Assembly: GCA_017499595.2 (NCBI GenBank)
Contig: CM039007.1
Span: 1,984,001-2,048,000 of the forward strand
Direction: 5' to 3'
From: Psilocybe cubensis
Taxonomy: Eukaryota
DNA: 64,000 nucleotides
In this document: positions 1-42,475 of the stretch, piece by piece
Position numbering within the stretch: the first letter of the stretch is position 1
How the letters are laid out: the number at the start of each line of letters is the position of its first letter
The notes under the pieces: generated by a model
What the model was told of the DNA's origin: nothing
The model's input: the letters and a program-made list of their open reading frames with translations, nothing else
The model's database searches: none
Program-made: the position numbers and the translations under genes

Positions 1-1139
1 TACACGGCTCGCTCAAACGACGGATAATAGTGCTAACACAGCACTGCAAGGTACCTCAAACGTCATGTCTCGTCCACCAGCCTCGAGCAATATTCATGAA
101 GATCAAAGTCTTTCATTGGGCAGTAGTAACCATCTGAATGGGCTCCCTTCCAAGAGGCAAAGACGTCAAAAATAAGCCCTAACCAAACTATCTCTTGCCC
201 TCTGTAACATTAGACAGAATAGAATAGAAGTATTAGAGTACAGAGTATTTAATTTTTTTTTTTTTGTGCTCGCTGCATTTCGCCCCATTATGGGCGTACT
301 AGCTTACACCGGGGCGAAAAACCTGGGTCCGCTGAATACGAAAACCAGACGCTCAGTTCCCCGGGTCCGCTGAGCTGTAGCCTGTGCACACCAGATACAC
401 ATACTCCGGACCCGCTGAGGTGTGACCATACACACATCTATTCGACGGATCGACATGCACCACTGACCACAGTACGGCCTTTCCTTGTGTCTTACCATAC
501 AGCACACTGTTACACTGGAAAAGACTAACACACTCGATGGAATTGTAAATTTCTGTGTATCAGAGGGATGTTGTAGAGTATACGTACAAGCAACAGAAAC
601 TCGAGATGATGGTAGAAAGAGAGAGAGAAGGAATACTATTCTGAACAAGTAAAGGATAAACAGAAGACAGGCTGAATTTATAAAGCAAAGAACCAAAATC
701 AGAAGCTAAGTAAGTTACATAGCCTACGTAAATTACCGATAATACAAGAGATATTGTCAAGCGAAACATGGTTGATTCAAGAAAATGTAGGACCGGTGAG
801 AAATACAAGACGTGTAATCTGGGTAAGAGAAAGAGAGGCACCAAGTTCGCCTGACCCTGCTCGGTTCGCATATGCTCGGAAAGTCGAAAAGTGGTCTTAC
901 CCTAGAAATAGTGAAGGAAATGAGCTTGTAATAACTCGATTTCCATTTCTGTCATCTTGGTCTGGGAAAAATTGGCGAATCTGTGCAAAAAGCCGTGTAT
1001 ATAGTCGGGGGTCCATCGAGAAACAGCGTAAATCATTTCTTGCTTTGTAATCCCAAAGGCATGAAAGTCCTGCAAAAGGTGTATCATGGAAGGGGAACAG
1101 GAGTCGAGAAAGGATGCAATTGCATCATTTTCATTCGAG

Positions 1140-2310
1140 TCATAACGCGACGGTGGGCGGGATACGGTATTGGCTGACGATGAGGCTGGAAGTCTCACTG
1201 TTAACTCTGGTTGGGATGATGAAATTACCATACATACCATTGACGTTCTCCTCTAATCGTGAATCTGAGGAACTCGCCGATGTGGAAACCAACGGAACTA
1301 TTTCAGGAAGGGTAAGTTTACTACGGGCTGGTCCGGGCATCTTCAATGAATTGGGGGTTGGGTACACCTTTAGTTGGTAAAAAAAGGATGAAGGGCCGTT
1401 ATTTACTCACCCCTTTACGCTTCCGTACATTATAGCGCGCCATCTCAAGTCTCTCAATTATGTATTGCTCCACAAGATCAAGTCTTTCACTTTGATCATT
1501 TTGCAGTGAGTGGTTAAAAATATCGGGGTATGCTTTTAATACCTGTAGGAAAAAAAAAAAAAAAAAAACTGTAGTAAGTAAAGGTCCATGCAAATTAAAC
1601 ACATAGTCCGTGCCCACCGTTTGACGAAACAATTTCCGTTGTTCAACTTGAAGAGAAGGTGGCAAATCCAATGTTAAGCAATCCTGCCCAATTTTAATGA
1701 TGTCGTTCTGTGAAGCAATGAGGATAATGTGCATGAATAGTATTGGAAATACTAACGACGATGTCCGAGACTGCTTGGTCATTATTCAAGCATACTGAGT
1801 TAAGCATGGCTTTTAGCTGACGCTCGCCCTATGTCATGCACTGTTAGTGTGTTGTACATAGTGGTGAATAGTACTGTTGTACTTGGCCTGTCTCTGTCTT
1901 GCTCTGAATTGTTTGCATTTCTGGAAGATATGGGAGGGCTTATTGTCTGTTGGGGAATGATAGAGGGGCAAGGGAAAGTTCAAGTTCAACTTTACGATCC
2001 CTCTTGTATCCGCCAATTTGACTGTGACGCTGTTCAATCGCTGTTCGGATCCGATATATCTGATCATTCTGATGTGTGTTACTTTTTTTTAAACTCACCT
2101 GTCTGTCACCGTGCAGTGCGGCGCATTCAATGAATTTATTTTTAGTTTCCGTGGGCAGAGGGAATTGCCATCGCCGGAAAGGCTCGGGTACAAAGGAGAG
2201 ATCGACATTTACAGTTGGTCTGTTGGAGACTGTGTTTGATAGTAGGTTGGGATTGCATTGGGTGATGAATGTACCTTTTGGTATTGAGGTATGTGTTGGG
2301 TGAGTATTTT
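1140..2310 (-). other. Probable multi-exon hypothetical gene or decayed gene of unknown function
   Basis: Several minus-strand ORF pieces (1140-1367, 1399-1782, 1834-2067, ~2100-2300) are separated by short GT..AG intron-like gaps. No recognisable domain; boundaries approximate. Confidence 0.35.
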
Positions 2311-4232
2311 TGATATTTTGTTTAAAATTACAACTTTAAAGATCTTTCAGGGAAATTAATACACACATTCAATTGGACAAGCGCAACCAGCTGCGATTAC
2401 ACGCAACCATTTCAAACTGGAAGCCATAATCTGACACTGACTGATGTATGTTTATTCATGATGAAGGGGAGACACTGGGTAAATTCTGTATGACGTATAC
2501 TTTTGTTGCCACGTATGTAAATCGGGCATGGGTCAATGACAACATCTACCTTATTGTAGGAACCGCTAAATTCCTGCGAGCGGAACAACGACTTAGCAGT
2601 TGTATGAATCACCCAGAATGCAAGACTCACAAAACGACGAAGTCCAGCACCTTGGCGCCCAAACCCTGCCAAACATGTGAGAACACGCCGCGCGCTTGTC
2701 AGTCAAATCACACCCATCCCCTGTCTGGCGTTTCCATCCCAATGTTTTATCGTCCATTTTCATTCTCAATACCTTTCCACAATTTCATCTTCCTCCACTA
2801 TCTACCTATCACACTCGTCCTTGTATCTATCACACAAGAGTTACTCAACTTACAACCAACCGGGTAGCAGTGTTTTGTTTGTTCATGAAGCCGGTAGATA
2901 AAAATTCGTAAATAGAACTAGTATATAAGTAGTCGGGCAGTCTGTGAAAGCGGTAGTGGAAATTTACCCTCGAAAATTTGGTTTCTCTCCGCTCCTTGTA
3001 CGTTCTCAAAGCTTAGCTGGCTATCGAAGAAAATCTAGCAACGCTACCTAACTCTTGTAACCCTACTTGTAAGGTGAGCCGTTGCTACGCACGGCAGATA
3101 CGAGTCCTTGTGATCAATTCCGTTGGAATTTATCAGACATGTCGTTTAGGAGGGGCAGCATCCAGTATATTATAAGATTGTAATAGCTCCATCTAACTTG
3201 AAGACAAAGACTGGACTGAAAAGAATGAAATCACTAATGTTTAAGTTGTCCTATTGTAGATTTCCGAAGCATATTTCTCAAAAAAGTCAAAAACAAAACG
3301 AGATGTTAATATACAAAACATGTATTTGATTCGTTTTTATTTCGCGTATATCAATGGCCTCCAGCAGTGTAATCAACTAACTATTCATGGATTCTAGCCT
3401 CTTACAGGGAAGGATAAGCGGCATCCCAATCTAAAGAGAAAGCAATAGTCAATGCAGAAGCCTCTCAAATTCCAATGACGAACGACTGGAAATAGGATAA
3501 GAACTTGGCAAACGTCGATTCTGTCGACGTGCCTTCAGTTAAGAAGAAAAATGGAAATGGAAAGGAAACCACCACCACTAATGCTAAGAGTAACAAAAAG
3601 GCACTTACATCAGACGATCTGGCTGCAAAAGAGACCGAGAAACTGCAGGTACAAGGGAAGCGGACCGAAAGTAAAATTCTCATAGTTAGTAGTGAATTTT
3701 TGTAGATTCAACAGAAAGGTTGTATTATGGTGAATTTACATGTTTTACACTCATCGTTTGAAGAGTCTAATACTCTATCCTATCGTCGTCATCGTCTTCC
3801 TGTGCTCGTCTGGGAAAAGGAAGAAGATTATTTGAGAAATAAGGAAAGTGGATGACAGGATTGGGGTTTGGAAACCACCTGGCGAACCAGATCATCATTG
3901 GTGTATGTTGAAGGTGTGGTGTGAGGGTGGGGTTCGCGGAAATTTGAATGCATGAATTTGACAAGACTGAGATTGTTTGTGGATAGTGTTGCTGTGATAT
4001 TCTCATCTTTCATCTTGCCATCGGTGGGTTCTTCGCCGTGGCGAGCTTCCAGATTTGACGAAACGTCCTCTTCGCCAAAAACCTCAGCCACATTTGACTC
4101 TGCATGCGAGGTCCCTTCTTGATCTGATGTTCTCAAGTTGGTGGCGACGTCAGTCTGGTCTTTGGCGAGTTCAGTGTCTTTGGGCGAGATGTGATGGCAA
4201 GCGGGATTACATTGTCCAAAGTCAATGTCAAT

Positions 4233-4341: not shown

Positions 4342-4512
4342 AAAGTCAATGTCAATGGGTTGATCCGAAGTACCTCCATACCACTGGTGTTGGCTGGCTT
4401 CTAACTTTTCCCGCGAATGAACAGGAATGTAGGGCATCTTATCAGCATCAATCTCCGCCGAGGAATCCGAATCCTTATCACCAAATTTCTCGCCCTGTTC
4501 GTCCTGTCCGCC

Positions 4513-7865: not shown

Positions 7866-9968
7866 TCACGTCGCTCTCCCCGCCAGTGATAAGTAGTGAC
7901 TGCGCTAAAATTTAATGGAAAAGAGGGCTTGTTCAGAACCATTCAAAAAAAGGGATATGGACCACAACGTACCACCTGCACAATCTGCGACTTTGCAGGT
8001 TCGGGTATGTTGTCGATATGTTCCTGAGTCATACCCAACACTATCGATATAGCCTATAATATTCCCATTCACAACCACAACAGTGTAATTGAAAAGAATA
8101 GAGAAAATTGCATGTAAAACGGAACAAGTCATGAGGAAACATAAGACAACCTGTCAGTAAACAAACACTCACACGTTGTTGTTCTGGATCCATCTCCACA
8201 AATGCCGTTGCTATTTGCGCAAGCTGTTGTTGCTGCTTTATTAACGGAGGTTCGACAAGTGTAAGTGGGGAGGTACAAGGCGACAACGACGGGTCGTGGC
8301 AGATCCTATGTAACTCAAGGAGATATTGGGCATGCGCATGGGGTTTTACGGCAATCGACGATTGCTCCCGTGTCGTTGGCATCAACTGACTTGAGGAATA
8401 ATGCAGGCCATGCAATGGGGAGTATGGCGTATACAGTGGGTATTGGCTATCTGAACCTGTTGGTCCTTGGTCGATTGGAGATTGAGTTAGAGAACTACCA
8501 GCCGCAGCGGGTCGTCGCGAGGAAGCGAGCATACGTTCAATCATAATTGGATCAACAAATCGATTCAGTACGAGGGAATGGCAAAGTGCGTAGGCTAGCT
8601 GTGGGTACCTAATGAGCAGCGTTCGAGCTTTTTCAGGATATGTGATCACGAAAGCCTGAAAATGAAAAAGACAAAGGTTCCAATCAATACAAAACACCGC
8701 AAACAATGACGTTAAAACAGAAACTCAAATTCCGTTGCTCACCTTCATCTGAGCCAGGGCCTCGCGAACTTTACTCTCCGGTAACTCAGCCACGATCCAT
8801 TTAATGTGGTCAAGTGCTGAAACACCACTCGGGATGGTTATCCCAGGTGGGATATTCGCTAAAAATGTATCATTGTCATTCCACTGCCCTTTACCCCCGT
8901 CATTTGCATCCAAATGCATTCGGCTACGGTATTCGGATGACCCAGTGTAACCCCTATCCATTATACGGCCTCTAACAGTCGTTTTTCCTTCCAGAAGAGG
9001 GTCCAAATCGGCCAAATCGACACGCAATGAACGACCTCCGCAGTCCGTATTATTGAGATTACGAACAGCCAAAAGAGCAGTCTCGTGATCTTTGACATGA
9101 AAAGACAAGTGTCGCGTACGTGTGGTAGATATTGAAGCAGAGACAATGCAGTTTGCAGTTTCGGTGTTGATATACAAGGACAACGGGATGGGGTCGCGAA
9201 TTAAAGTTTGATACGCACATAACAGTAAAGTATAACTGATTGCGCGGGTAAAAGGATTTCACATCAAGGAGATTTCAATGGATATAGGGTATACACATAA
9301 CCATAACGGTCGCAGTATTCGAGGTAATCGAGCCAAGAACAAGCCGTGATTTGATTTTTGTTATGATTAGTGCGTTGTACACACATTGAAATATATTGGG
9401 TTTCACGAAGAATGTATCATTCGAAAAAGGATGCGGCACATTGTTGTAATTCGTGGATATGAGGAGTGAGGTTAATTCTGGGTAAGTTAAGTAATTCGAA
9501 ATTCGACACTCACGCGTTTGGGTGTATTTGAGACATACAAGACAATCGTGACAACAGAGTTGATATAATCGCATCCCATTAAGTAGTGTAGGAATGAATA
9601 AAAGAGAAACTTAAAGATCAGACATAATACGTGTTGATAGGCAGGAAGAAGCGAGATAGAAGTACCTGCAAATTCACAAAAGCCATAACCTTTTGGTTTT
9701 TCTGTGTCTCTGTCGAAGGCGAGCCTGTATAGAAGAGTGTATAGAGTTTAGTTGTAACCTCTCCCGAACAAGAATACGAAATACGATACCTAAATCCTAC
9801 AACCTGACCAACAGCCTTGAAAATAATCACAATTTGTTCTTCTGTCATGTTAAAAGGCACATTGCCAACTTACAGGTCACCAATACGGACAGAGAAATGA
9901 GACGAAAAGGATTTGAGCACTCCAATAAAATACGCACCAAACACCACACGACTTTTGCTGTTAGACAT
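7866..9968 (-). CDS. RNA15-like: Rna15/CstF-64-like mRNA 3'-end processing protein (RRM + hinge + C-terminal domain), diverged paralogue
   Basis: Spliced translation MSNSKSRVVF/VGNVPFNMTEEQIVIIFKAVGQVVGFR/LAFDRDTEKPKGYGFCEFA/DHETALLAVRNLNN.. contains RNP2 and RNP1. Hinge AFVITYPEKARTLLIRYPQLAYAL; C-terminal VLGMTQEHIDNIPEPAKSQIVQV/RSHY..; stop at 7866-7868. Confidence 0.85.
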
Positions 9969-11119: not shown

Positions 11120-11906
11120 TTACATGGAAAGACTATTAATGCCATTATCAAAATCTAAAATGAAAGACTGCGAATGCGAGACTGAAGCCATTCCAGGATC
11201 AACGTCAAGACCTGGTTGAAAAATCACCAGGTCTTTGGCGACTCTGGTAACGTCTGTATCAACAGGGCCATTGAAATGCATCTCAGATACGAAAGGTAAG
11301 TGGCTCATGTCACTAACGAAACTGACAGATCGGCACAAGCCTTCTTCGTTGGGTGCTCTGGGACGGTTGAGGTAGGTACCCTCAGAATGAATAACTGACC
11401 CAGATTTATGGCAAAACCGTAATAGTTCGGCAACTTTCGTGTTTAAATTTATATAAACATTGGAAAAAATGTCCATTTTAATCGAAGTACAAGTTGTATT
11501 TGTTTGTTTACGGGGTGCTCTAGCTCCGGTGATGTGGCTGTAAAAAATTGGATCTCTGGGTTCGAAGCTGTCGATAGTGAACCGAGGACGGGCTTTGTGT
11601 TTATTTTGGTAGTCTGCGATAACGTGTCGCNNNNNNNNNNNNNNNNNNNNNNNNNNNNNNNNNNNNNNNNNNNNNNNNNNNNNNNNNNNNNNNNNNNNNN
11701 NNNNNNNNNNNNNNNNNNNNNNNNNNNNNNAAACCCCAGATGTACCTGACGTACGACTGAACAATTTCTCGAGTGAGACGTGAAGTCCCTCTCATTGCGA
11801 TCAACTGTTCTAAGTGACAGAACGACATTATCCGGTAGATTAAATTTGGGGGTAAACATGCCATCGAAGTGAAAAGAGTATCCTTTGCGTAGTCGTGGTC
11901 GGCCAT
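11120..11906 (-). CDS. Hypothetical protein with possible N-terminal F-box-like segment, spanning an assembly gap
   Basis: ORF 11601-11906 begins ..MACLPPNLIYRIMSFCHLEQLIAMRGTSRLTREIVQSY (LP..l...I.s.l..L..l..TS pattern of F-boxes). An open frame resumes after the N gap to 11120; continuity cannot be verified. Confidence 0.35.
11631..11730. other. Assembly gap (100 N)
   Basis: Run of n characters. Confidence 1.
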
Positions 11907-16600: not shown

Positions 16601-16906
16601 GTATACAATTCCGATTTCCTATCAAAACAAAGAAATCCATAACAGCTTGTATCTGAGATTGAACACTGCACACGAATCTTACACAGTCACTCAAATACCC
16701 CATTGTTGACTTACATGTTCGGTTTAGCCCCCACCTCTACGAAAGAGTAGCCAAGGCGTTCTGCCTTGCCGCATCGACAATATTAAAAATAACACTAGTG
16801 GTGATCGTCATTGTCGTCTAAAAAAATCAGGTTAATCCTAGTCAGCGTATGCTCTGTCGAATGACTTGTTATTAAACACAAAAACGTTCTACTGACCGGA
16901 ACCATA

Positions 16907-29294: not shown

Positions 29295-30400
29295 TCATCC
29301 CACTGAATACGCCTGGTCTACATCAGCAGTAGCGGCCCAAGACTGGACCAAGACTTCCCTAAGACATCCAACGAGCACGAGAATGAACTGCAACACACCA
29401 TCGACGGTGCATATCAGATATGAAGGCATGGCATCGTATGTGCCTGGTACAATCTGGGTGTTTGGAGAGGGAAAAATTGTTGGGTCAGCATACGGTCATG
29501 GATATGGGGATGATTGGAAGTGGCTTTAAAGGGAGCGACGTGAAGAGAGATTATCATTGAATCATTCACCTTTCCATCCTGCACGAGCACAGACACTAAG
29601 ATTTCGTCTGGATCACCGACGCGTCCCAGTACTTGAATATTCCGCTGATCTATTCACCGCACATACATAGGCGAAATAAACATGAGTTTTGACCCGTATT
29701 TAAGTGGGGTCTCGGTTCGAAGAACTGAAATAGGTTTAAGGAATGGAAGCAAAGAGACCTACCGCCAATATGCATCCAGCCATTCCCATGGGCAATAGCG
29801 GCATCTCTCCGAATATCGTCTTGTCCCTGTTCAAGTACAGTTTGGATGGTGATGTGCAGGAACGAGAGAAATTTGTCTGTTGCTTCATCGTATCGATATC
29901 AGAGTATCAGTTAAGAATTTTCTTGTTTTCAGATAAACAGAAAGGGTGGGGTGCAGGGCAGCATAAACCGCACCCGCCGCACTTTCTACGCGCTCAAGCA
30001 GAGAGGAAATTGAATACAAGACTTACCGTTCCCTATGAAATCATCCAACGCTGAACCCTGCCCTTCTCCATGTATTGCCCCTCCCTTCACTCCTCCTTCG
30101 ACAGTCGTCTGTACAGGAAGCCACCCAATCAATGCTTCGGAGCCCTCCCCGCCAACAGCACTAGCAGGGAAGAGTATCAAAATATGACAGTGCGAAGGCC
30201 GGGAGCACGGGTGAGAATGGCATTGGAACGGGAGTGTAATAGTAGAACAGGTCGGGCCGACGAGGGTCAGCGAATGTTATGGGATTTATTTCTGATTCCG
30301 GTTCTGGTTCATATTCGTGTTGGGTGGGGAAGTGTCGGAAGATGACGGTACTGCCCGGTCGCTGTTGTAGTATATGGCCTGCGAAGATGTTGCCTCGGTG
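29295..30400 (-). pseudogene. Frameshifted, intron-containing copy of a conserved uncharacterised fungal protein
   Basis: Exons translate FADPRRPDLFYY..PAFALSYFD (frameshift) ..LIGWLP..ALDDFIGN / DKFLSFLHITIQ..GNGWMHIG / DQRNIQVLGRVGDPDEILVSVLVQDGK / IVPGTYDAMPSYLICTVDGVLQF..*. I recognise the GWMHI..D.R..GR.GDPD.I and Y..MPSY..CT.DG motifs from a conserved fungal family. 5' end approximate. Confidence 0.65.
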
Positions 30401-30905
30401 TACGTGTATATGATATGATATGTTGCAAGGTGGTAGGTCTAGGTAGACAAGTGCTAGCCTTCCTGTACAGTGACGATCATCTTTTGCCGGTTCGAGTAAA
30501 GTCCCTTCTGAGGATTCTAAGGGTTGATGATGAAGCTTTTGGAGTGACTATGGCGTGCAATATCGTAAACGATGATTAGTGGTACTGAGATCGATGTCGC
30601 TGAGACTGAACGACAATCGACCTCGAAAAAATGGTGGAAAAAAAATCATGCTTGGGGCCCGCAGTCAAATCCGACGCGGTCCGTTTGTTTGGAATTAGCG
30701 TCAGTAGTAAACATGCCCCTATTTTATAATTCACGGTGACACCGTTCGACACCGGCAATGCCAACGACTGTTTGGCAGAGTATACAAATCATACTTTTCA
30801 GAGAGGTAAAATGCATGTTATTGAATATTGTTGTAAGGCATGGGATTAAGCAATTCGTAGGTATGAAATTGGATTTTGTAAGGCATGTAATTAAGCAATT
30901 TGTAG

Positions 30906-30907
<2 letters not shown>

Positions 30908-30956
<49 letters not shown>
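30908..30956. repeat. Poly(A) tract (~49 nt), with a second ~19-nt tract at ~30989-31007
   Basis: Directly visible. Confidence 0.95.
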
Positions 30957-30957
<1 letters not shown>

Positions 30958-31819
30958 ATAATCAGGTATTGAGGATTAGAATACAACTAAAAAAAAAAAA
31001 AAAAAAACAGACACGCACCTTATACACTTCACAAACAGGCAACTAACTATCGCCAATGACTGAGTCGACATCTAACTCCTCCGACAATACGACAAATCGC
31101 ACAGCAGACGTAAGAGATAGGTTAGGAGTGATGTCACTGTTAAAAATGGTCAATAGCAGCGATACAACGAAGAACAAGCGTAGAAATTTAAAGGAAAGCG
31201 AAACAGTAAAGAATGGGTATTTACAGAGTCAAACGGGACAGACACAGGCCTGGAGGCTATCTCAATATAAAAGCAGACCATAAGCAACGATACATGGGTC
31301 AACAACGAAAGAGTTCGTGAAACAAAACATTGCCACACGGAAACTGCACAAGGAAAAAGAGGATCAGCGGACCGAATTTGACCGTGAAACGTATGAGTTT
31401 ATGTAAATGGTTGCAGAGACACGACCCAACGCGCCAAAATTTGGCGATTAAAAAAAAAACCACAAAACCCACTTCCTTTCAATCACGGGAATTATTTAAG
31501 TTGATGGAGGTTGCTTTGCGATCGTTCGCGATTCAGTACAAAGTACATGAGCTTCATTGCATATGACATTTATTTATTTAAACTATCATTTCACCAGGTT
31601 CAGAAATATAAGACCACGTTTGTCATGAGATACACTGTCTGTGTCAGTAGAAAACTCGATCAGTGACGCCCATGTCCCTGAGGATTCCTTCGAAACGTGA
31701 ATCTACAGTATTTGTGTCAAGCAACATGTGAAACACTCCTCTATTAGCTTCACCGCATTCCGGACAGACAGACGTTGGTATAACACCACCGCCCTTCAAA
31801 CAAATCTCCATGTTATTAC

Positions 31820-33640
31820 CGACTTCGTTGTCCGCGATGGGCAACAAGAAATGTCAGTGCATGTCAGTGCATGTAAGTGCACGTCGGCACTGACATTCAC
31901 TGACAATATAATGTCTATGCACTGACATGCACTGACATCACTTAGGATTTGTGAAAAAATTGAAGTCTGTACTTCTATACAATAAAACTATGTTTATTGC
32001 AGGATTACTTAGATGGATTTTGACCGGATTTTAAGTGTCTGGAAATCTAGTATCCTCCTAGAATTATTTTAACACTGACTGCCAAGAGTTGATGCACTGA
32101 CACATGCACTGACCGCCAAGCATTTGCACTGACTGTGCACTGACATGCACTGACGGTGCACTTACATGCACTGACGATGCACTCACATGCACTGACGGTG
32201 CACTCACATGCACTGACATAAACTGACTTTCAGTAATGGTGCACTGACGATGCACTGACATTATTTTTACCTTATAATCATGTTATCTTTTATTTCAAAC
32301 GAAGAACACAATGGTAGGTAGGTAGACTGGTATGAATTACCTCTGGTCCATCAACTGTCCCAAAGACCTGCTCAACTAGGATGCACCGATGGGACTTTCT
32401 AGTTCCCTTTCCCTTTTAGCTGTGTCATAGGGACGTCCTCCCTACTAAAAAACCGCACCCAAGCTAAGGCCAATATTTCAAAGCATTGTTGCGCCTGCAG
32501 CCAAGTATGATCCCAAATCATTGTCAAACAAGCATATTGGATCATTTATACACAGGGATACTCTGAGGCGTCTATCTAATGATTCCAGCATAATTCATTC
32601 ATTTTCCAACATCTATGCTTGATTTAGTACACCGGATCATTACTTGAAAATGTAGAAAATATATGTCTACTTCTATATCTTGTTATTTAGCCATGTCTGG
32701 CCCATAAATTCCGAGACTGTATGTTTTAATCCTCCCTAAGTTAACTTTCTCACGGCCCACGACTTTCAATCTAACAAGTAAAAACTTTGCCACCACACGA
32801 TGAACTAACCAACGCACTAACATAACCCAGGACGCACTGACACACCCTGACCAATTTATAGATGATTTGAAACATGCACTGACACTGCACTGACATCACT
32901 GCAGTTTACACTGACATTGCTGTGGTATGCACTGACATGCACTGACCGCACTGACATTGCACTGACATTTTCCAGTGCCCGTCCGCGATGTACCTACGAG
33001 CAAGCGAATGGCGATTAGAGGAATACACGTACAGAAGACACGCAGAAGAAGATATACACACAATACATACCATGGATGATAAGAACGGTTACACATGAAG
33101 TGCACGCTGGGAAGATCGAGCTGGTCGATGTAACTGGAGCACCTTGTCATAGAACACCCGAGACTCTTCTGTGTTTGTCAATTCAGCAAATTGCTTTATC
33201 CTGTCAACGATCTCCAGACGATACGATTTCGTGAGAGCTTGATCCTACGAAAGGAAAAACAACGAACAGATTAAATAGAAAGGGAAACTTACATTCTGAA
33301 TTTCACTCCTACTTTCCTTGATCGTCTTGATCAACCATTGCTTCATTAAACCGACACTCGCCACTCCATTTCGACTCAAAACTTGTAAGACTCCCAAGGA
33401 GAATCAATTGCACGTCGTCGATATGCTCCAGGATGTCCTTCAAACCAGTTTGATGTCGGTTAAGCAGCTCCGGCGTCGAGGTCAAGAACCTCAGAACAAG
33501 CGAGTATAGATGAGGACAGGCCTTTCCTTGGTACATGAGATGCTCGATAACCTCCTGCAACGCGTCGGGTGTGTTGCCTTCTTTGTCTTTGTCCATCCAA
33601 AAGCGTAGAACATCTTCATACATACCATCTTCTCCTAGAG
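31820..33640 (-). pseudogene. VPS11: Captured 3' fragment of VPS11/PEP5 (clathrin-repeat end to RING), frameshifted and interrupted by a MULE-like MITE
   Basis: GMYEDVLRFWMDKD..HLYSLVLRFLTSTPELL..(frameshift) GVLQVLSRNGVASVGLMKQWLI..EIQN / DQALTKSYRLE.. TRCS..QLDLPSVHFMCNRSYHP / YIADNEV, with two native-looking introns retained. Confidence 0.85.
31839..32980. mobile_element. Non-autonomous Mutator-like (MULE) DNA transposon, 1142 bp, with cactgacatg subterminal repeats
   Basis: Perfect 9-bp TSD gtccgcgat at 31830-31838 and 32981-32989. Imperfect TIRs gggca..aaatgtcagtgc / gcactgacattt..tgccc. Many gcactgacat copies at 31855-31940, 32070-32260 and 32835-32970. Confidence 0.9.
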
Positions 33641-33799
33641 TAACACGAGTCCGCCAGTGAAGCGGTATAGAAAAGCACAGCGATACCAAGATACCCATTG
33701 AGGTACATACCCTAATCCAAGCATGAGAAAGTCTGTACAACCTACAGTCTACATGAAATTTTAATGTCTATCATAATCACAAGAAAACAGAGGCAGCGT

Positions 33800-33976
33800 A
33801 CAAACGCTGATTAATGTAAACGACAAAATATTCTGCTTCACGTCTTTCTTCGGCTGCTCCATCACAGCCGTGTTCTGCACCAGAGACGGTGCGTGGAAGT
33901 CGAACGAGAAGAGCTCGTTTTCAGGTGCTTTGGGCTGTGCCGCCTGCGCCTGCGCGGGCGCGGGGTGGGAGTACAT
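33800..33976 (-). pseudogene. Short captured fragment resembling the middle region of a fungal ArfGAP (Age2/SMAP-type)
   Basis: ..QPKAPENELFSFDFHAPS..QPKKDVKQNILS, resembling the DLFSLDF / KKDVKQDILSLF motifs I recall from basidiomycete ArfGAPs. GC-rich island in AT-rich context. Confidence 0.45.
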
Positions 33977-34277
33977 TAGTCACAGCATAATAAGTGGACA
34001 TTGGTTGGGTGGATAGTCACAGTAATATGAACTGATAGATTGCCACGCGCTTGGAGTTTTCCGAGATTGATACTGGGCATACAGTCTAAAGAGCGCAAAA
34101 TCACCACAGACGGATAATTGGAATGAAACAGTATTCACCTTCCCATCCAGAACTCTATGACAAGGGTTTAATTTCAACAGGAAGTTGTATTATTCCACGG
34201 TGTCTAGGATTTACCCTTCAGTAGCGGGTACATAGATATTACATCAACAAAAAGTATGAATAAACCATATAACATGT

Positions 34278-35591
34278 TCAAGAAAGGTCAAGGAGATGAT
34301 TACCGAACTGTCCGTCTAAAATAGCGTCTTCCATAGTTGGGGGGATATACGCCAGCGCCATCTCCTCGAGAAAAAAACCAGCTTTCAGTTCCCCAGGGAC
34401 GATAGGGATAAGATCATCGATCCCCTAAAAACTCGTCAACTGAATCCCAAATTCAGACGAACAATGTCATACTTTGTTACATGTACCGTACAATTGCTTG
34501 TACCCAAGAGACACCAGAAGGGCGTCTGCTTTGCATTCCACGTACCGATTCAGGTCGTCTAATGGAATGTCTATCTCGGAAAGGTCCAGCAAATCTATAA
34601 TATTCAGCATGCTAATCAGACACGGACCATTAAAAAACAAACCATTATCATACCACTGCCGAATTTTTTTTCGATTTTAACAATGGTCCCGACGAATTCG
34701 TTGACAAAACTGGTTAACGGACGCCTTTTCAAATGATAAAAAAGCAGCGAGACAAAGTCTACATGACATTCCCTGTCATTGAAGATCCGGGTGTAAGTAG
34801 ATACCATAGTTGGGAGGTAATCTTTGCCAGAAAACCATTGTAGAAGCCGGGACAGAGAAATACCAAATATTCCTTGAATGAATATAAAAACGAGCAACCT
34901 CTCAGAGAAAGGATACACGGAAGATCTCGTCCAAATATTCATAAATTTTTCCTTTGGACGCAAGAGTTCCCATTCATCGACGCAATCGTCCATTCGAATT
35001 CCTGTGAGACCGTGCGTAATCTTGGCCATCGCCTCCTGGTGGACGTTTTCACTGTTAGAACGTTGTTAATCGAATCCTGAGATAAATCCATGTATAAAAA
35101 ATTCACACCCACTTGACCGACTGGAAACTGAAATAGCAATGTGCTTCTGGGACTGTAATTTCTTTGGAGATTATATCCAATAGTCGCTTATGTATCCCAT
35201 GAGAAGCAATAGAAAGTTTGAAAAAGAAGATGCCACCGCATCGTTGTTGGAATGACAGACACTCAGTCCAATCCTTAGAGTCACGTGATAAACCAGCACA
35301 ACGTGCTTCCCATAACGTCGTCACAGCATGCAAGTATGCTTTCCAAATCTGAACAGGGCAGTTCCAAGGCAATTCAAACAAAGTTAGTCCCGAAGGAAAA
35401 AATGTTACATTAACAACAACACCTTAATGTACCGAATGGGAAAGAGAACAAAACGCCGCGAATCCTTAGCGAGTAGTCGCTCCTGCGCATCAAGAATAAG
35501 AATTCGAGCGGGAGAGAACCTATGAATCTCTATCATAACATTACAAACACAACAAACCGCGACATTTGAGGCGCTCACCAAGATTCGCCAT
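34278..35591 (-). CDS. RNR2-like: Divergent ribonucleotide reductase small subunit (R2/beta) homologue lacking the radical Tyr and several di-iron ligands (pseudo-enzyme)
   Basis: Exons 35591-35579 (tentative), 35529-35423, 35348-35113, 35051-34654, 34594-34473 and 34424-34278. All introns are GT..AG and phases are consistent: 1023 nt = 340 aa with no internal stop. Motifs ERLLAKDSRRFVLFPIRY, IWKAY..LSRDSKDW, EITVPEAHCYFSFQ, ENVHQEAM, FSERLLVFIFIQGIF, NDRECHVDFVSLLFYHLKRRP, YVECKADALLVSLGYKQLY, KAGFF follow eukaryotic R2 order. Confidence 0.85.
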
Positions 35592-35715
35592 AACAATGGA
35601 GCTGTGAACTTGCGCACACTGACTCTGTCTGACGACCTGACCTTAAATCTACGTCGCGGTTTACACATAAAGAGACTCAGAATGCAATACACCGTCACTT
35701 ACAACACGAGCTAAG

Positions 35716-36116
35716 ACTTGCATACATCATCACGTAAACATAAGCACGTACACTTCCTCCCACGATGGGTAAAAGTGCTGGCTAGTTAGCGTGATAGTTG
35801 CTATTACTCATATGATCTGACAACCAAACAAAATAACAACACACGGCGGACAAAGTGTTGCTTACTTGGTGTTACGTGAGCAGTTCGTGACTGGACCCAA
35901 TTAAACACAAGCTAAGTGACAGTAATACTTGCATACGTCATCACGTAAACATAAACACGTACACTTCCTCCCACGATGGGTAAAAGTGCTGACTAGTTAG
36001 CGTGATAGTTGCTATTACTCATATGATCTGACAACCAAACAAAATAACAACACACGGCGGACAAAGTGTCGCCTACTTGGTGTTACATGAACAGTTCGTG
36101 ACTGGACCCAATTAAA
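35716..36116. repeat. Tandem duplication of a 190-bp unit (period 211 bp) between the R2-like gene and the Rep-helicase
   Basis: acttgcatac..ggacccaattaaa at 35716-35905 and 35927-36116, differing by only a few substitutions. Confidence 0.95.
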
Positions 36117-36529
36117 GAATCATTGAACGAATTTCAGTAACAGTACCAGATACCATACACAGACAAAACTCTATATAAACGAGTACACCCTATTTAAATA
36201 AGACAAAAGACCAGAACAGATAAAATCAACACCAACGCCCCGACAGACCCATTTCCAGATATATTGAAGAATGGTGAGCGCTTACAAAAACTTATAGTAG
36301 AACTATCTGTCAAATTACACAACGCAGACCACTTATATTAACACACAAAACACGGTATCGTCGTTGAAAGCGTCGACTCTGCAACGCGGTAAGTAATCGT
36401 TTTACCTATGGGAATTATCGCTGATGAAAAATTCGATTCGTCACCTTGTATCCAATTCAAATCTGGTTAAACTTGAAACTTGATATTAAATGAATTTAAA
36501 TTGACACGGATTAATTCCGATTTCACGCG

Positions 36530-39500
36530 TTGGACGAAATTTCAGATATCGATATCTACAGGTACAAACCCGAATATAGCCGTCCATATGTAGAAAAGCT
36601 TAAAGTGTTACGTTTCAACGAATATTACAAGTTCACCACAATATGGCTTTATCATGATGACGCTATAAAACACATAAATGACACTACAAATCTCGTATTC
36701 ACTGTCAGTATCTCTGTACTGATGTTCTGGTTCAGATATTTTACTATGAATGACATGAAAGCCATAGCCGATTCCCATGGCATACAATTTTCCCGTTTAA
36801 CTAAACCCAAACTATTCGCTAAGATATTTGAACACCAATGCAGTAGCAAATGCAGTAACTTGATATATGTTTTCAAATGCATGGCAAGACCACGTCAACA
36901 TATATTCAGTATTTTCGAAGAACGGTGTGGCAATTTCGATTTTGAAAGACGAACTGTTGCCAAAGAAAATTTGAACAACCCACCACAAGACAATCCTGGT
37001 ATAGACTGCGCGGATACGATTACAGAATCACAGCAACCCAATCGAGTTAAAGCGGTCCCCATCGACGAAGATCATCTTAAACCTATCGGGAAAGATGAAA
37101 AATTAAAAATTATACGGGAATGGAAACAAGAAATGTCTACGGACAGACTGTCCAATGTAGTATGCGCGGCATGCGCTTTGAGGTTTTTCAAGCGCGATTG
37201 TATATGGGTAAACCCAGACAATACCAAGCTGAATCTACTACAAAATCCACACTTGCCAGATTCAATTTTACCTAAGACTTATGATATCAAGATTTACAGA
37301 AAGGCCATACTGCATTATAAAGGCATGGAATACCGTGATCGTATTGGCAAGCTATGTCTCTGTCCAAAATGTGACAAAGCACTAGCGGCCTTCACTATGC
37401 CTAAATTTGCTTTGTGTAACTGGATGTATTATGGAATTGAAAGTTTACCAGAAACCGTGAAGACGGCGATAGAACATTCAACTATCTTCGACAGGATGTT
37501 ATGTTCGCGAGCACGGTCCAGTGTAATCACGTGCAGATTGAACCACACCACACAAACAGAAGACAAAGACGACAACGAAAATACGTTGAGTCGAGCTAGG
37601 AAAGGTATAAGAGGAAACGTTCTAGTATCACCGCTAGACGTGATACGCATGAACAATGTTATACCACCTGCGTCTGACACGATAAGGGACACAATGTGTG
37701 CTATATTCATCGGTAAAGATCTACCTAACCGTAAGACCATTCACAGATATAAACCTACCTTAGTCCGAAGATCGAGGGTAAAGACAATAATACACTTTCT
37801 ATTAACCGAAAATCCAGAATACTCTGCGAGCACCGAGTACAGCGAAGAGAATATGAGACTTTTGTTTGACAACGACAAAGACGAGGGTATACCACACGCC
37901 GTACATATAGGCGCTATGACCGATAACGACGCCATCAGCTCAGCCGTCGCAGATTATACATGTCGAAATGTGGATGAAAATTCAAAGGACGAATTATACA
38001 ATGAATTACTGATGGAAAATGTAGGATATACATCTGGAGACAACTCACCACAGGCATTCCTGACTATGAAATCAACTGCTTTGGAGAGATGTCTCACTGG
38101 GAAACCATTCCTGGCTTCTGGTACAGGATCTAGTATGGTACCTGACTTTCAAAATCCATCGATCTTGACATGGTTATTCCCCCATCTGGACCCTTGGGGT
38201 ATCGGAGGGTTTTACCATCCCGGACGAAAGATTAAAATAAGCATGGAGGAACAACTCAAACATCTTCTTTTAGTAGACGACAGCCCGTTTGCGAAAGACC
38301 CAGAATTCGCGTTTATTTTCTATAACATATGTCGGAAGGCACTAGTGTCCCAGAGTCTACGTTTCTCGGTATCCCAATCGTCACACAAGAAAATAGCTAA
38401 CGAACTGTTAAATATCGATTTAGACATGTTAAGTCACTTAACCAAAGAATGTGAGAAAAATCCGTATTACAAACCAACAGAAACAAAAGAAAAAGAAGCT
38501 TTTAGACTACTGTCTTCGATCAGACTGGTATCAAAACACGTACCCGGGAGCGATGGCTACAAACTAACTCTACGTAACCAAATCAGGGCATTGATTAATA
38601 ATAAAGGAACACCAACACTATTCATCACTATCAACCCGTCTGACGTGGACAACCCTATCGTACGTCTGTTAGCGGGTGAGGATATTTCATTGGAAAGTAT
38701 CGAACGAGGAGAGGACTGGACGAAATGGAGAAGATCACTCTTTGCAGCACGGAACCCTTCAGGATGTGCACGTTTTTTTGACCTAATGATAAACAACTTC
38801 ATTAACGTCATATTACGATACGGGCGCGAGGAAAATGGTTTATACGGCAAATGTACAGCGTACTACGGTACTGTCGAGGCACAAGGTAAAGGAACATTAC
38901 ATTGCCACATGCTGATTTGGTTGCACGGGCACTTATCTCCCCAGAAACTACGCGATGAAATGACCCGATCAATACATTATCAAACAAGAGTGTTCATGTG
39001 GATCGAATCTATAATTCAATGTGAATTTCCAAACTCAGTAGGATCCGAACAACAGACTAACGATTACCCCCGACGAATACTATCTACTGAAACAGGTGAT
39101 CCTCATCCAGGTGTAATACAATCACCTTCCCCACAAAATTATACCGATATAAACCAATTTTGGCTCGAGTTCGACTTCTTCCTGGAGCGAATCTTACATC
39201 AGTACGCATGGCACGAGCACCAAGCAACGTGCTGGAAATACCTTGAACGAGGTCAATCCAAATCAGACAATAATTGCAGAATGGGTATAAATGGGCAGAC
39301 CTTGGAAAAGACTACATTAGACGAAATAACAAAAGAGATACTACTCCGCAGACACCATCCAAGATTAGCGCAACACACTGATATAGTATCATTCTTATTG
39401 CAGTGCAACATGGACATTAAATTCGTAGGGTCAGGAGATGCAGCAAAAGCGTTCTTGTACTATGTTACTGATTATATAACAAAGGCATCTCTACCAGTTC

Positions 39501-42391
39501 ATGCAGGTATGGCCGCGTTGTCGTATGCTGTAAGTAAAGCGTACAGCAAAATGTCCGCAAATCAATCAGAAATATCAGACAATCAAACAGTGGGTGCCAT
39601 CATAACAGCTGTTAATAGTATGATGGGCAGACAGGAAATATCACAACCACAAGTAATGAGCTATCTAGTAGGCGGAGGCGACCACTACACATCTCACAAA
39701 TTTGCTATACTCAAATGGCACAGTATAAGAAGGTTTTGCATGTCTCATCACACTAAATCCAATCAGACGCCCAACAACAGCACATTAGACGACGTAAGCA
39801 ATACCAACGAACAAGAAAACGAAGAGTCAGTTGAGTTAAATATGGGTGACAGAGACATAACGGCGTCCAACCAACGACTGGACTATTGTTTAAGACCAGC
39901 GAACGACAAATTCATAGATTTGTGTTTGTATGACTTTGTAGCATGGGGTATCAAACAACGGTATACCAAAGAAATGTTACACATTGAAACAGCAGTACGT
40001 CCAGGATCATTCTTAAACGACGAGCACCCTGAGTATTTCACCCATTATATGACAATCAGAAGAAAAAGTTGTATACCAATTATACTAGGCCCTTCTATTC
40101 CGAATCCATTGAAGTCTGATCAACTAAAAGATGACTGGGCAAGGGACATGTTACTCCTCTTCAAACCGTGGAGGGATATATCAGATTTAAAGACCCCATC
40201 AGAAACATGGACAGACGCATTTCATAACTACGAGATATCAATGAAACTAGAACACACGCGCATCATACAGAACATGCAAGCTTTGACAGAATGTAGCGAG
40301 GCCCGCGACGCACACAGGCAGCGCAGACGTGGAAAAACATCCGAGGATGTAGTGTCCGATGAAGTACAGGATATAATATTAACAGACACGGAAGGTAATA
40401 CAGACACCCTCAACCCTAACGATGTATACTCTCCAGATCCCTTCCAATGCATTGAAAACCCCAACGAAGACTTTACAACAAACTTACACGACTCCATAGA
40501 TAACATAGGAGAGGAAACTTCAAGATTTCTAGACATGTGTCTCCCACTGGATACAACGGAAACTGCTGTGGACACGGAATATCAAAAATCAGTTCCAGTA
40601 AACCAACAAACTCTAACATCACATGAAGTGGATGATCTGTTAGCAAGCCATCGCGCCATCATGAAATCAAAAAGAAAACGTGCAATGCTACATGAACCCG
40701 ACACAGACGACATAACTACGCCACCCAAACGATATCGCAATGGGAACTATGCACCTATTGCCAAGCAAGCTATACTCCAGGATTTGTATGATTTAAGTCA
40801 TAATTACAATTCAATAACAGACACTGACACCATGAACAACATCGCAGAAGAAATGGGACTTTTAAATAACCCAGAACAGCTAAAGGCGTTCCGAATCATC
40901 GGTAACCATATCATAACCGACAACAAGGAACAGTTGCTGATTCATATTGCAGGCGTTGGCGGTACAGGTAAATCCCATTTGATAAAATGTCTGATTATGT
41001 TATTCGAGCGCTTGCATCGCAGGAATGAGTTATTATTAGGAGCACCGACCGGAATAGCGGCAGTGCTGATCGGAGGACAAACACTACACTCACTGATAGT
41101 ATCTCATGCAAATCAGTCACAAGCAAAACCCAATAAACTTAAACTAATTCAAATTTGGAAATACATAAAAACTTTAATAATAGACGAGACCTCAATGATA
41201 AGCGCAAAATTCCTCAGTGAAATCTCTATCAGAATTAGGCAAGGGAAAGGAGATGACGTCGTTAACAGCAATAAACCATTCGGAGGAATTAATGTAATAT
41301 TTATGGGCGACTGCGCACAACTAAAACCCCCTCTACAAAAGCCATTATATGCAAATGAATTGGTGAAGAACCCGTCTTTTGCAGAAGCTCGGAACGTGTC
41401 AGGACCATCACAACTAAATGGCGCATTTCTATGGAGACAAGTAAAAACAGTGATACAACTAGTCAAAAACGAAAGACACGCAAGAGACATAAAGTATGCC
41501 CTTTTTCTTGATAGACTAAGATTGGGCCTCTGCAGAAGTAATATTAACAATATTAAAAGTGACAATGAACAGTCAGATTACCATTATATATATAACAGAC
41601 TTATCCAGAAACAGGCTTCTAATCCAAAAACACTAGCATTGTTCAGAGATGCACCTATCATTGTAGGCAACAAGGCCGTACGAGACATCCTGAATGCCAA
41701 GCTAATCAAGTACCATTCAACAAAAGCAAATATATCACCACATATATACTATTCACGAGATGAGAGACACAAAAAAAGGATTACAGGTGAGTTCCAACAG
41801 ATATTATGGAGACTACCTTCAACAAAAACAAACGACGCCCTTGGAAAACTACCTCTTTTCATTGGAATGAAAGTAATGATAACAGAAAACATTGCATTCG
41901 ATGATAAAATAGTCAATGGCACTGAGGGTATAGTCACAGACATAAAATATGAAGTGGACGAGAAATACCGTCGATACTGCAAAGCTGTGTATGTACACGT
42001 CAAAGGTTGTGGAATACAAGTAGACGGGCTAGAAAAAGATGTTGTTCCAATTTTCCCTTCTTCGACTTCAATAGATGTTAAATACCAAAAGCATATCAAA
42101 TTGTTTGACAGCTTTACACGGAAACAAGTCCCACTAATACCAGCGTATGCGTACACAGACTATAAAGGACAAGGTCGCACACTTGATAGGGTAATTGTTG
42201 ATTTATTAACGGCAAGAGGTCAAGGTGCATATGTAATGCTCTCCAGAGTAAAATCCATATCTGGATTACTAGTTCTACGATGGTTCCCTGAGAATAAAAT
42301 ATACAATCGGTTACCTGAAGAACTGCGCAACGAGTTAAACAGACTGGACAACATAGCGAAGTCCGACGTCGAACAATCTAGACCAATCTAG
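36530..42391 (+). CDS. Helitron Rep-helicase transposase (Helitron2/HLE2 type): N-terminal Cys/DUF6570-like region, HUH-Y2 Rep, PIF1-family SF1 helicase
   Basis: 1953-codon uninterrupted ORF. Rep motifs PTLFITINPSD, VEAQGKGTLHCHMLIW (HUH), YYVTDYITK (Y2). Helicase motifs GVGGTGKS, IIDETSMI, GDCAQLKP, AYAYTDYKGQGRTL, AYVMLSRV. N-terminal CPKC..PKFALCNWMYYG, RGNVLVSP, LFPHLDPWGIGGF. True start uncertain (track starts at TTG; possible small 5' introns at ~36270-36400). Confidence 0.95.
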   Translation: MDEISDIDIYRYKPEYSRPYVEKLKVLRFNEYYKFTTIWLYHDDAIKHINDTTNLVFTVSISVLMFWFRYFTMNDMKAIADSHGIQFSRLTKPKLFAKIFEHQCSSKCSNLIYVFKCMARPRQHIFSIFEERCGNFDFERRTVAKENLNNPPQDNPGIDCADTITESQQPNRVKAVPIDEDHLKPIGKDEKLKIIREWKQEMSTDRLSNVVCAACALRFFKRDCIWVNPDNTKLNLLQNPHLPDSILPKTYDIKIYRKAILHYKGMEYRDRIGKLCLCPKCDKALAAFTMPKFALCNWMYYGIESLPETVKTAIEHSTIFDRMLCSRARSSVITCRLNHTTQTEDKDDNENTLSRARKGIRGNVLVSPLDVIRMNNVIPPASDTIRDTMCAIFIGKDLPNRKTIHRYKPTLVRRSRVKTIIHFLLTENPEYSASTEYSEENMRLLFDNDKDEGIPHAVHIGAMTDNDAISSAVADYTCRNVDENSKDELYNELLMENVGYTSGDNSPQAFLTMKSTALERCLTGKPFLASGTGSSMVPDFQNPSILTWLFPHLDPWGIGGFYHPGRKIKISMEEQLKHLLLVDDSPFAKDPEFAFIFYNICRKALVSQSLRFSVSQSSHKKIANELLNIDLDMLSHLTKECEKNPYYKPTETKEKEAFRLLSSIRLVSKHVPGSDGYKLTLRNQIRALINNKGTPTLFITINPSDVDNPIVRLLAGEDISLESIERGEDWTKWRRSLFAARNPSGCARFFDLMINNFINVILRYGREENGLYGKCTAYYGTVEAQGKGTLHCHMLIWLHGHLSPQKLRDEMTRSIHYQTRVFMWIESIIQCEFPNSVGSEQQTNDYPRRILSTETGDPHPGVIQSPSPQNYTDINQFWLEFDFFLERILHQYAWHEHQATCWKYLERGQSKSDNNCRMGINGQTLEKTTLDEITKEILLRRHHPRLAQHTDIVSFLLQCNMDIKFVGSGDAAKAFLYYVTDYITKASLPVHAGMAALSYAVSKAYSKMSANQSEISDNQTVGAIITAVNSMMGRQEISQPQVMSYLVGGGDHYTSHKFAILKWHSIRRFCMSHHTKSNQTPNNSTLDDVSNTNEQENEESVELNMGDRDITASNQRLDYCLRPANDKFIDLCLYDFVAWGIKQRYTKEMLHIETAVRPGSFLNDEHPEYFTHYMTIRRKSCIPIILGPSIPNPLKSDQLKDDWARDMLLLFKPWRDISDLKTPSETWTDAFHNYEISMKLEHTRIIQNMQALTECSEARDAHRQRRRGKTSEDVVSDEVQDIILTDTEGNTDTLNPNDVYSPDPFQCIENPNEDFTTNLHDSIDNIGEETSRFLDMCLPLDTTETAVDTEYQKSVPVNQQTLTSHEVDDLLASHRAIMKSKRKRAMLHEPDTDDITTPPKRYRNGNYAPIAKQAILQDLYDLSHNYNSITDTDTMNNIAEEMGLLNNPEQLKAFRIIGNHIITDNKEQLLIHIAGVGGTGKSHLIKCLIMLFERLHRRNELLLGAPTGIAAVLIGGQTLHSLIVSHANQSQAKPNKLKLIQIWKYIKTLIIDETSMISAKFLSEISIRIRQGKGDDVVNSNKPFGGINVIFMGDCAQLKPPLQKPLYANELVKNPSFAEARNVSGPSQLNGAFLWRQVKTVIQLVKNERHARDIKYALFLDRLRLGLCRSNINNIKSDNEQSDYHYIYNRLIQKQASNPKTLALFRDAPIIVGNKAVRDILNAKLIKYHSTKANISPHIYYSRDERHKKRITGEFQQILWRLPSTKTNDALGKLPLFIGMKVMITENIAFDDKIVNGTEGIVTDIKYEVDEKYRRYCKAVYVHVKGCGIQVDGLEKDVVPIFPSSTSIDVKYQKHIKLFDSFTRKQVPLIPAYAYTDYKGQGRTLDRVIVDLLTARGQGAYVMLSRVKSISGLLVLRWFPENKIYNRLPEELRNELNRLDNIAKSDVEQSRPI

Positions 42392-42442
42392 ACCGAACGA
42401 GACCACCTATTTCCTTTTATAGAAAAATGCTACCACCCTAAA

Positions 42443-42475
42443 CCTGGACTTAAAGAGTCCAGGCATAAACTCTAC
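42443..42475 (+). mobile_element. Putative Helitron 3' terminus: 8-bp stem hairpin followed by ..ctac
   Basis: cctggact-taaag-agtccagg (42443-42463) lies 52 nt after the Rep-helicase stop, followed by cataaactctac. Sequence immediately beyond is the start of an intron of the truncated protease gene. Confidence 0.7.

Follow-up and report, generated by a model that had tools for sequence, protein, structure and literature searches.

The window analysed here is a stretch of 64 000 nucleotides (nt) from the genome of the mushroom Psilocybe cubensis (contig CM039007.1 of the assembly GCA_017499595.2, positions 1,984,001 to 2,048,000 of the forward strand), and all coordinates given below are counted from its first letter. 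Its central feature is a rolling-circle transposon of the Helitron kind, intact at 36.0-42.465 kb, whose 3' end coincides with a break in a gene for a pepsin-like aspartic protease. The DNA to the right of position 42465 carries ordinary genes (for a dual-specificity phosphatase and a short-chain dehydrogenase), whereas the DNA to the left is poor in genes, relatively poor in G+C (0.426 in 1-42465 vs 0.496 in 42466-64000) and holds a mixture of gene remnants and small transposons. We consider here how much of this left-hand DNA may belong, together with the Helitron, to a single mobile unit.

The Helitron is recognized by its Rep/helicase gene. An open reading frame (ORF) with zero internal stops, located at 36530-42391 on the plus strand, encodes 1953 amino acids, in which searches against the Pfam database identify the domains DUF6570, Helitron_like_N (PF14214, 3e-36) and PIF1 (PF05970, 1.2e-22). 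The expected catalytic motifs are likewise in place: HUH (LHCHML) at residue 791, YxxxY at residue 978, Walker A at residue 1475 and Walker B, DETS, at residue 1552. The closest relatives of the protein are Helitron helicases of 1900-2000 amino acids from Agaricales (Gymnopilus, Psilocybe and others), which share 43-52% identity with it and align from end to end. The first ATG in the frame of this ORF is found only at residue 66, and translation may instead start at an ATG at 36271, with two putative consensus introns that would keep the frame; a TATA-like box and this putative start fall within 36.17-36.27 kb.

At the other end of the element, 51 nt past the Rep/helicase stop codon, begins a hairpin of an 8-bp stem and a 5-nt loop (CCTGGACT-TAAAG-AGTCCAGG, at 42443-42463). 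Folded as DNA, it reaches -9.1 kcal/mol (z = -3.9), a value equalled by none of 200 shuffled sequences. The sequence at the 3' end reads ...AGTCCAGGC(A)|(A)TAAAC, the last letters of the element thus being ...CAGGC(A), and the hairpin lies merely 1-2 nt from this end. By its protein and its 3' hairpin, the element is a Helitron, but assignment to the canonical Helitron1 type (TC...CTRR termini, insertion at an A|T site and a hairpin that precedes the end by 10-12 nt) is ruled out, as there is no CTRR and the hairpin stands too close to the terminus. The position of the end was also read from public sequencing data. Nine public runs contain at least half of the sequence words of 38001-48000, and reads of X1, X5 and X9 (as Logan contigs) and of X11 (as raw reads) were aligned to 24001-44000. 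In X1, a contig spanning 36040-42465 meets a flank contig that begins at 42438; matches to the flank begin at 42465 in X9 and at 42466 in X5, and loose ends occur behind 42466 in X5. The contig that carries the Helitron stops at 42465 in X1 and already at 42406 in X5 and X9, so the final 60 bases ahead of the hairpin differ among the copies present in the latter two.

The interrupted gene was delimited by tblastn with a 474-residue orthologue from P. cyanescens (P0124). Residues 1-269 are encoded on the minus strand by four exons at 43545->42493, whereas the C-terminal 205 residues (270-474) yield no hit at E<=10 in any part of the 64 kb, and a search of the window for a second D[TS]G motif in a protease context yielded no credible candidate. 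Behind the last exon, which closes with ...DGLMGTAKS, stands a GTGAGG donor; at 42465±1, after 27-28 nt of the intron, the protease gene therefore breaks off. One exon of 80 residues (42493-42732, minus strand) shows 100% identity to a public record of 282 amino acids, 'Pepsin A [Psilocybe cubensis]' (P0123), and that record represents the same truncated protease. The three observations with which a preliminary description of this DNA had characterized the right-hand boundary, i.e. an intact Rep/helicase, a terminal hairpin and a host protease gene cut at the same point with its second half absent from the DNA to the left, are thus all borne out.

That the Helitron and the protease were merely brought together by the assembly, a copy of the transposon having been joined to flanking or left-hand DNA that is not its real neighbour, appears highly improbable. 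An X1 contig that starts at 42438 and extends past 44000 crosses the right-hand junction with 0 differences, and the truncated protease of 282 amino acids recurs in the independent public annotation. The left-hand connection gives such an artefact somewhat more room: a run of N is present at 11631-11730, and no contig runs from the left block into the Helitron, the contigs of all three contig-based runs being interrupted at 35774-36040 by a tandem duplication (35712-36116). Because this duplication stops every short-read contig, the link between the two parts is provided by depth and raw reads. The raw reads of X11, however, show even depth, with no loose ends at 35.7-36.1 kb among the top-ranked ones listed.

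How far the unit may reach to the left is indicated by the depth of the reads. In all four runs the depth is flat over the unique parts of 24001-42465, without any step near 36 kb, and falls 2 to 5.5-fold at 42465. For the left block, the Helitron and the flank, respectively, it amounts to 86.6-96.7, 90.3 and 16.5 in X1, to 20.4-30.2, 24.9 and 7.6 in X5, to 46.6-49.7, 50.1-53.8 and 24.5 in X9, and to ~46-60, ~47-70 and 26 and 19 in X11, where it should be kept in mind that a summed contig depth is no copy number. A second low-depth control is provided by a diverged paralogous contig over 30104-30191, with a depth of 15.9 in X1, 12.4 in X5 and 17.9 in X9, which is close to the depth of the flank in X1 and X9. 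The flank contig of X1 starts 28 nt inside the element and is unbranched; since the flank is always joined to the Helitron and yet has only ~18% of its depth, the Helitron end must, in a pure culture, be joined to other DNA as well. As the left block equals the Helitron in depth to within ~5%, the other copies of the Helitron must include the left block. For X11, 1631.7 million letters distributed over a genome of at least 40 Mb (a size taken from Logan contig totals of 39.7-42.1 M) correspond to an average of at most 41x, lower than the depth of the block. Taken as ratios to the flank, these data favour about two copies of the block per flank copy in X9 and X11, 2-3 copies in X5 and 5-6 copies in X1. 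The simplest possibility, a Helitron of 6-7 kb inserted in the protease gene, can be rejected, given that the other half of the gene does not lie just upstream and that there is no step in depth near 36 kb.

A more elaborate version of a small Helitron is the main rival explanation, although we regard it as unlikely. The element would be an ordinary autonomous Helitron of ~6.4-6.8 kb, with its 5' end near 35.7-36.2 kb, residing in an old graveyard of transposons and pseudogenes, and the junction with the protease would be the product of a deletion or rearrangement at the Helitron end. One conceivable route is recombination with a second copy in the protease intron, by which all the DNA between the two copies, the C-terminal half of the gene included, would be lost; the depths would then be those of a homozygous block next to a flank that is heterozygous or hemizygous. 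Such a deletion accounts for the missing half of the protease and has a published precedent in FoHeli1 of Fusarium oxysporum TR4, for which deletions exactly at Helitron ends are described (PMC13342296). The size of the element would also agree with that of known fungal autonomous Helitrons, given as 5-13.7 kb in two other papers (PMC5148889; PMC4289320), and the TATA-like box and putative gene start at 36.17-36.27 kb also speak for it. The ratios near 2 in X9 and X11, as well as repeat-variant contigs of X1 with a depth near 45, fit two haplotypes. On the other hand, the ratio in X1 is 5.5 and not 2, and the total depth of the flank (all alleles at least 90% alike) stays below that of the block in 4 out of 4 runs. 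Furthermore, the block in X11 is covered more deeply than the highest possible genome average, and the Helitron shows no excess of depth over the left block, i.e. no sign of solo Helitron copies.

Comparison of the strains behind X5 and X9 with the window adds a second line of evidence. The block differs from these strains by 0-0.4%, whereas the protease flank differs by 1.5-2.7% in substitutions (~5% when gap letters are counted), so that the block is 5-10 times less diverged. In X5, four contigs from the block show 8/2127, 6/2128, 5/2302 and 10/6367 differences (0.16-0.38%), compared with 10 differences and 2 gaps in 661 positions of the flank (about 1.5-1.8%); in X9, each of five contigs from the block has 0-1 differences, and the flank has 42 substitutions and 34 gap letters in 1536 positions. 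A single depth and low divergence throughout 24001-42465, with a drop at 42465, therefore fit a large unit with the Helitron terminus as its right-hand end. The other strains were also compared for an empty site, as proposed in the preliminary description. One contig of X5 (1067 nt) and one of X9 (14 457 nt) match the flank only from 42466 and 42465 on, respectively, and continue on the element side with 407 and 10 336 other letters, so the flank is joined to different DNA in these strains and the protease site seems to be unoccupied in both. Conversely, two contigs of X5 run beyond 42466 into other sequence, revealing other neighbours of the Helitron end. A tandem or head-to-tail join inside the window is not supported as their origin, the X5 loose-end consensus after 42466 having 0 matches in the window at up to 3 mismatches.

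These junctions bear on yet another explanation, namely that ordinary recombination or replication errors gave rise to the block, be it as a segmental duplication or amplification or as part of an accessory or aneuploid region, with the Helitron as a passenger at its edge. The variation of the copy number among the runs (about 2 to 5.5) would be natural under this explanation, and so would the failure to find a 5' end of the Helitron in the window. We nevertheless consider it very unlikely. Only 1-2 nt separate the boundary from the terminal hairpin, the distance to the preceding Rep/helicase stop codon being 74 nt, and at least two further right-hand junctions in X5 start at the same base, while a boundary set by chance would not be repeated in this way.

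The interpretation that we favour, and to which we give about an even chance, is that of a Helitron-terminated unit which is multi-copy, recently mobile and at least 18.5 kb long (24001-42465). A total of about 22 kb is suggested by the contig over 24001-26160, which has a length of 5835 nt (about 5.8 kb in X1, X5 and X9) and would probably carry the upstream block to ~20326. Under this interpretation, the Rep/helicase may have nicked the DNA at a start site far upstream, conceivably a remote left end that belongs to the element itself. Alternatively, the start could have been the left end of an upstream copy of the Helitron whose terminator was bypassed, as has been proposed for the two-copy arrangement of FoHeli1 in strain C081 of F. 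oxysporum (PMC13342296). One strand would then have been peeled off through the junk-rich DNA and the Rep/helicase gene, with copying halted at the terminal hairpin. In the lineage of the window, the copy would have been inserted in the intron of the aspartic protease gene, parting the N-terminal half at 42493-43545 from the C-terminal half. A composite Helitron, with an upstream copy on the same strand bearing a defective 3' hairpin, was sought, and no such copy is present within the 64-kb window.

Several observations weigh against a large unit of this kind. The extra DNA lies 5' of the Rep/helicase gene, unlike in the usual capture by read-through at the 3' end. The 5' end of the Helitron was not found in the window, and inverted partners of 42392-42520, such as the asymmetric terminal inverted repeat (ATIR) by which the 5' terminus of a Helitron2 is complementary to a subterminal 3' stretch, are limited there to 10-nt inverted matches at the level of chance; both the match of this kind at 29279 and a small similar hairpin at 28608-28627 were examined as 5' partners and, having no supporting feature, are attributed to chance. 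Six Helitron protein queries in tblastn match the window only at 36.4-42.5 kb, revealing no second copy or remnant. The RNA15/CstF64-like gene further to the left resembles an ordinary intact gene, and the scaffold has a gap at 11631-11730. As for the depth, its evidence is confined to 24001-44000, and the single-copy baseline consists of one flank and one paralogous contig. Small-repeat variant contigs of X1 with a depth of 38-51 also fit a scheme in which 90 stands for two haplotypes and 45 for one. The ratios near 2 in X5, X9 and X11 could come from a homozygous block beside a heterozygous or poorly aligned flank, and the depth of the flank in X11 is 0 at 43713. Finally, X1 is possibly the source sample of the window and hence not independent.

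The content of the left-hand DNA was surveyed by comparing stop-to-stop ORFs of at least 62 amino acids with Pfam, 123 from 11.8-36.5 kb and 66 from 1-11.7 kb, i.e. 189 altogether. The only convincing matches among the former are RNR2 (three ORFs) and VPS11_C (one ORF), and among the latter CSTF2_hinge (two ORFs) and RRM (one ORF); all other matches are weak and at the level of chance. The RNR2-like copy retains an exon-like layout, its three ORFs scoring 57.5, 30.0 and 18.7 bits against PF00268 and 41-45 bits against yeast RNR2, but two of the iron-ligand glutamate positions are changed and the copy is predicted to be non-working as RNR2. VPS11 is represented by two pieces on opposite strands, both 80-86% identical to VPS11 of P. 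cyanescens, the second of which continues the first in inverted orientation. This split would be explained by one inversion of ~16.2 kb whose breakpoints lie at about 16.9 and 33.07 kb, the right-hand one being bridged by the X1 contig 32952-33502, and by the position of the more distant piece the Helitron-terminated unit possibly extends to 16.8 kb or further. The VPS11-like ORF, when searched alone, has no match in Pfam or PDB and nothing useful in Atlas. Its best matches of 300-670 amino acids raised the idea of a proliferating family of truncated VPS11 genes, which we rejected: the short ones are mostly metagenome (ena, jgi) or Logan records and probably partial gene calls, and two of the three top matches are full-length VPS11 proteins that share 80-81% identity with the half of the query they match.

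Two nested elements, or in the second case possibly a cluster, are bounded by pairs of terminal inverted repeats (TIRs), and both coincide with bins of high depth; at the second, 273 loose read ends of X11 accumulate at 31839 and 294 at 32980, with a local depth of 2-7x that of the block. In X5, X9 and X11 a variant of 30492-31704 was also observed that is ~10% diverged and from which 765 or 782 bases are missing (30725/7 to 31491/31510). In the form without 782 bases, 24 other letters take their place, and its depth in X9 nearly equals the depth of the protease flank; the variant is probably a partial paralogue located elsewhere in the genome.

The material carried to the left of the Helitron is thus mostly decayed, comprising an RNR2-like pseudogene, the broken 3' end of VPS11 and nested small TIR transposons. 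The AT-rich composition, the diverged copy of RNR2 and the nested small elements had all been pointed out in the preliminary description and are confirmed by these analyses. Its mention of two VPS11 copies is correct as far as the presence of VPS11 sequence is concerned, yet what it counted as two are pieces of a single 3' fragment. Its ArfGAP-like gene could not be recovered, as ArfGap matches occur in none of the 189 ORFs of 1-36.5 kb at E<=0.01. Nor does the left-hand DNA, with mostly dead fragments and small transposons, bear out a comparison with the adaptive cargo of Starship-type transposons.

The exons of the RNA15/CstF64-like gene, by contrast, look intact. The most far-reaching possibility is that Psilocybe harbours an autonomous Helitron which is currently active and longer than 42 kb. 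It would exist in ~2 to 6 copies, identical to one another but varying in number and position among strains, would be almost the same under three organism labels, and would move tens of kb of upstream DNA, a whole RNA15-like gene included. Such an element would be a basidiomycete rolling-circle counterpart of the giant cargo transposons of ascomycetes. We regard this extension as distinctly unlikely. The features discussed in the text are summarized in table 1.

Table 1. Features at the right-hand end of the Helitron and in the DNA to its left (coordinates within the 64-kb window).
Feature	Coordinates	Strand	Remarks
RNA15/CstF64-like gene (RRM exons and hinge)	8044..9869	-	exons look intact
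Scaffold gap	11631..11730		run of 100 N
VPS11 3' fragment, piece B	16837..17091	+	residues ~1004/1032-1087, VPS11_C; residues 1032-1087 at 16924->17091; continues piece A, inverted
Upstream block	24001..36039		depth and low between-strain divergence same as Helitron
Nested multi-copy element, ~0.98 kb	26098..27078		33-nt TIRs, arms 94% complementary; raised depth
Nested multi-copy TIR element or cluster	31836..32983		TGCACTGAC-type repeats
VPS11 3' fragment, piece A	33031..33749	-	residues ~835-1017 at 33667->33076; in-frame stop
Degenerate RNR2-like (ribonucleotide reductase small chain) copy	34470..35423	-	three ORFs, exon-like layout kept
Tandem duplication	35712..36116	+	194 nt x2, 96% identical, period 211; just 5' of the Rep/helicase TATA-like box
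Helitron Rep/helicase gene	36271..42391	+	domains and motifs observed; spliced start putative
Putative Rep/helicase intron 1	36274-36327	+	GTGAGC...CAG, 54 nt
Putative Rep/helicase intron 2	36389-36545	+	GTAAGT...CAG, 157 nt
Element 3' terminal region	42392..42465	+	hairpin 42443-42463; read-defined end 42465 +/-1
Interrupted protease intron, first 27-28 nt	42466..42492	-	GTGAGG donor, read from sequence
Pepsin-like aspartic protease, N-terminal 269 residues	42493..43545	-	4 exons; first catalytic DSG at ~42851

Some further repeats and ORFs of the window may be mentioned for completeness. Near the left margin, two minus-strand ORFs of 414 (4336-5577) and 483 amino acids (5228-6676) have no convincing Pfam family; in the former, an 18-nt tandem repeat with 12 register copies (4454-4773) encodes repeats of the GEE(N/G) type, and the latter contains a cysteine-rich stretch. 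An inverted match of 95-100 nt (82%) between 4240-4342 and 50590-50690 probably reflects two copies of a small repeat. Beyond the protease, an array of ~30-nt tandem repeats at 56016-58637, with 69 register copies of a 53-nt reference (similarity roughly 60-90%), lies across several long ORFs of the minus strand, two of which were checked in Pfam with nothing credible emerging.

It is instructive to compare the unit with other large mobile elements. Starships are moved by a tyrosine-recombinase 'captain' located at one end. The unit described here would resemble them as a large mobile block that interrupts host genes and varies among strains, but the Pfam scan of the 189 ORFs (at least 62 amino acids, 1-36.5 kb) revealed no tyrosine-recombinase captain, and with no recombinase among the ORFs scanned the element is not a Starship. 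It also differs from Starships in that its material is mostly pseudogene debris, with no functional cargo. Gene fragments together with their introns are also picked up, at the DNA level, by Helitrons of maize and other plants, which can be tens of kb long; those carrying gene fragments are mostly non-autonomous and canonical (TC...CTRR), whereas the present one is autonomous, non-canonical and fungal.

Among fungal Helitrons, HELPO1 and HELPO2 of Pleurotus ostreatus come from an agaricomycete, too, and they agree with our element in a single RepHel ORF with PF14214 and PF05970, interrupted by introns in some cases, in captured gene-like sequences and in young, nearly identical copies that disrupt the synteny of haplotypes (PMC4289320). 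They measure 1.5-13.7 kb, insert between A and T, have T[C/G]...CTRR/CTTG ends and a RepHel of ~1400 amino acids, and carry captured genes downstream (PMC4289320). The element of P. cubensis, in contrast, ends with ...CAGGC(A) rather than CTRR, has its extra DNA upstream and belongs to a block of at least 18.5 kb. For the Helitron2-type elements FoHeli1-5 of Fusarium, sizes of 5-11 kb are given (PMC5148889); their hairpins and inverted repeats are set back 38-51 nt from the terminus, and what defines the family is the ATIR, a matching repeat at the 5' end (PMC5148889). By comparison, the hairpin in P. cubensis is 1-2 nt from the end, with no 5' partner found in the window.

A further parallel is offered by FoHeli1 itself. 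In strain M1 of F. oxysporum TR4, deletions with breakpoints exactly at the Helitron ends were ascribed to recombination between nearly identical copies (PMC13342296). In the Race 2 strain C081, a putative capture was reported with coding fragments between two copies, in a fragment shown as ~38 kb in a figure (PMC13342296), and it was reasoned that the DNA between the two copies could be mobilized because the upstream one is devoid of a 3' hairpin (PMC13342296). FoHeli1 thus shares with the present element activity in a fungus, terminal hairpins, structural breakpoints at the Helitron ends and a strain-variable copy number (PMC13342296). The differences are that FoHeli1 measures ~6 kb and that its large capture is single and unamplified, between two visible copies (PMC13342296), whereas in P. 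cubensis one copy is visible, the block is apparently multi-copy, the host is a basidiomycete and the Rep/helicase has 1953 amino acids, with a DUF6570 domain at its N-terminus.

A search for literature linking P. cubensis with Helitrons returned nothing beyond one unrelated mention in a Stropharia genome paper. If the favoured interpretation is true, an autonomous Helitron repeatedly copying 20-40 kb would mark rolling-circle transposons as large-scale movers of DNA in mushrooms, and its polymorphic insertions among sequenced strains would provide a natural system for the choice of Helitron start and stop sites and for the pick-up of host genes. If the protease was instead lost by deletion at the Helitron end, this would be the second fungal example of Helitron-associated gene loss, here affecting a secreted protease. 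The published fungal Helitrons compared here span 1.5-13.7 kb, plus one putative composite in the ~38 kb figure fragment (PMC4289320; PMC5148889; PMC13342296). Set against them, an autonomous unit that occurs in several copies and measures at least 20 kb would be unusually large for a fungus, yet it would depart from known Helitrons in size rather than in kind.

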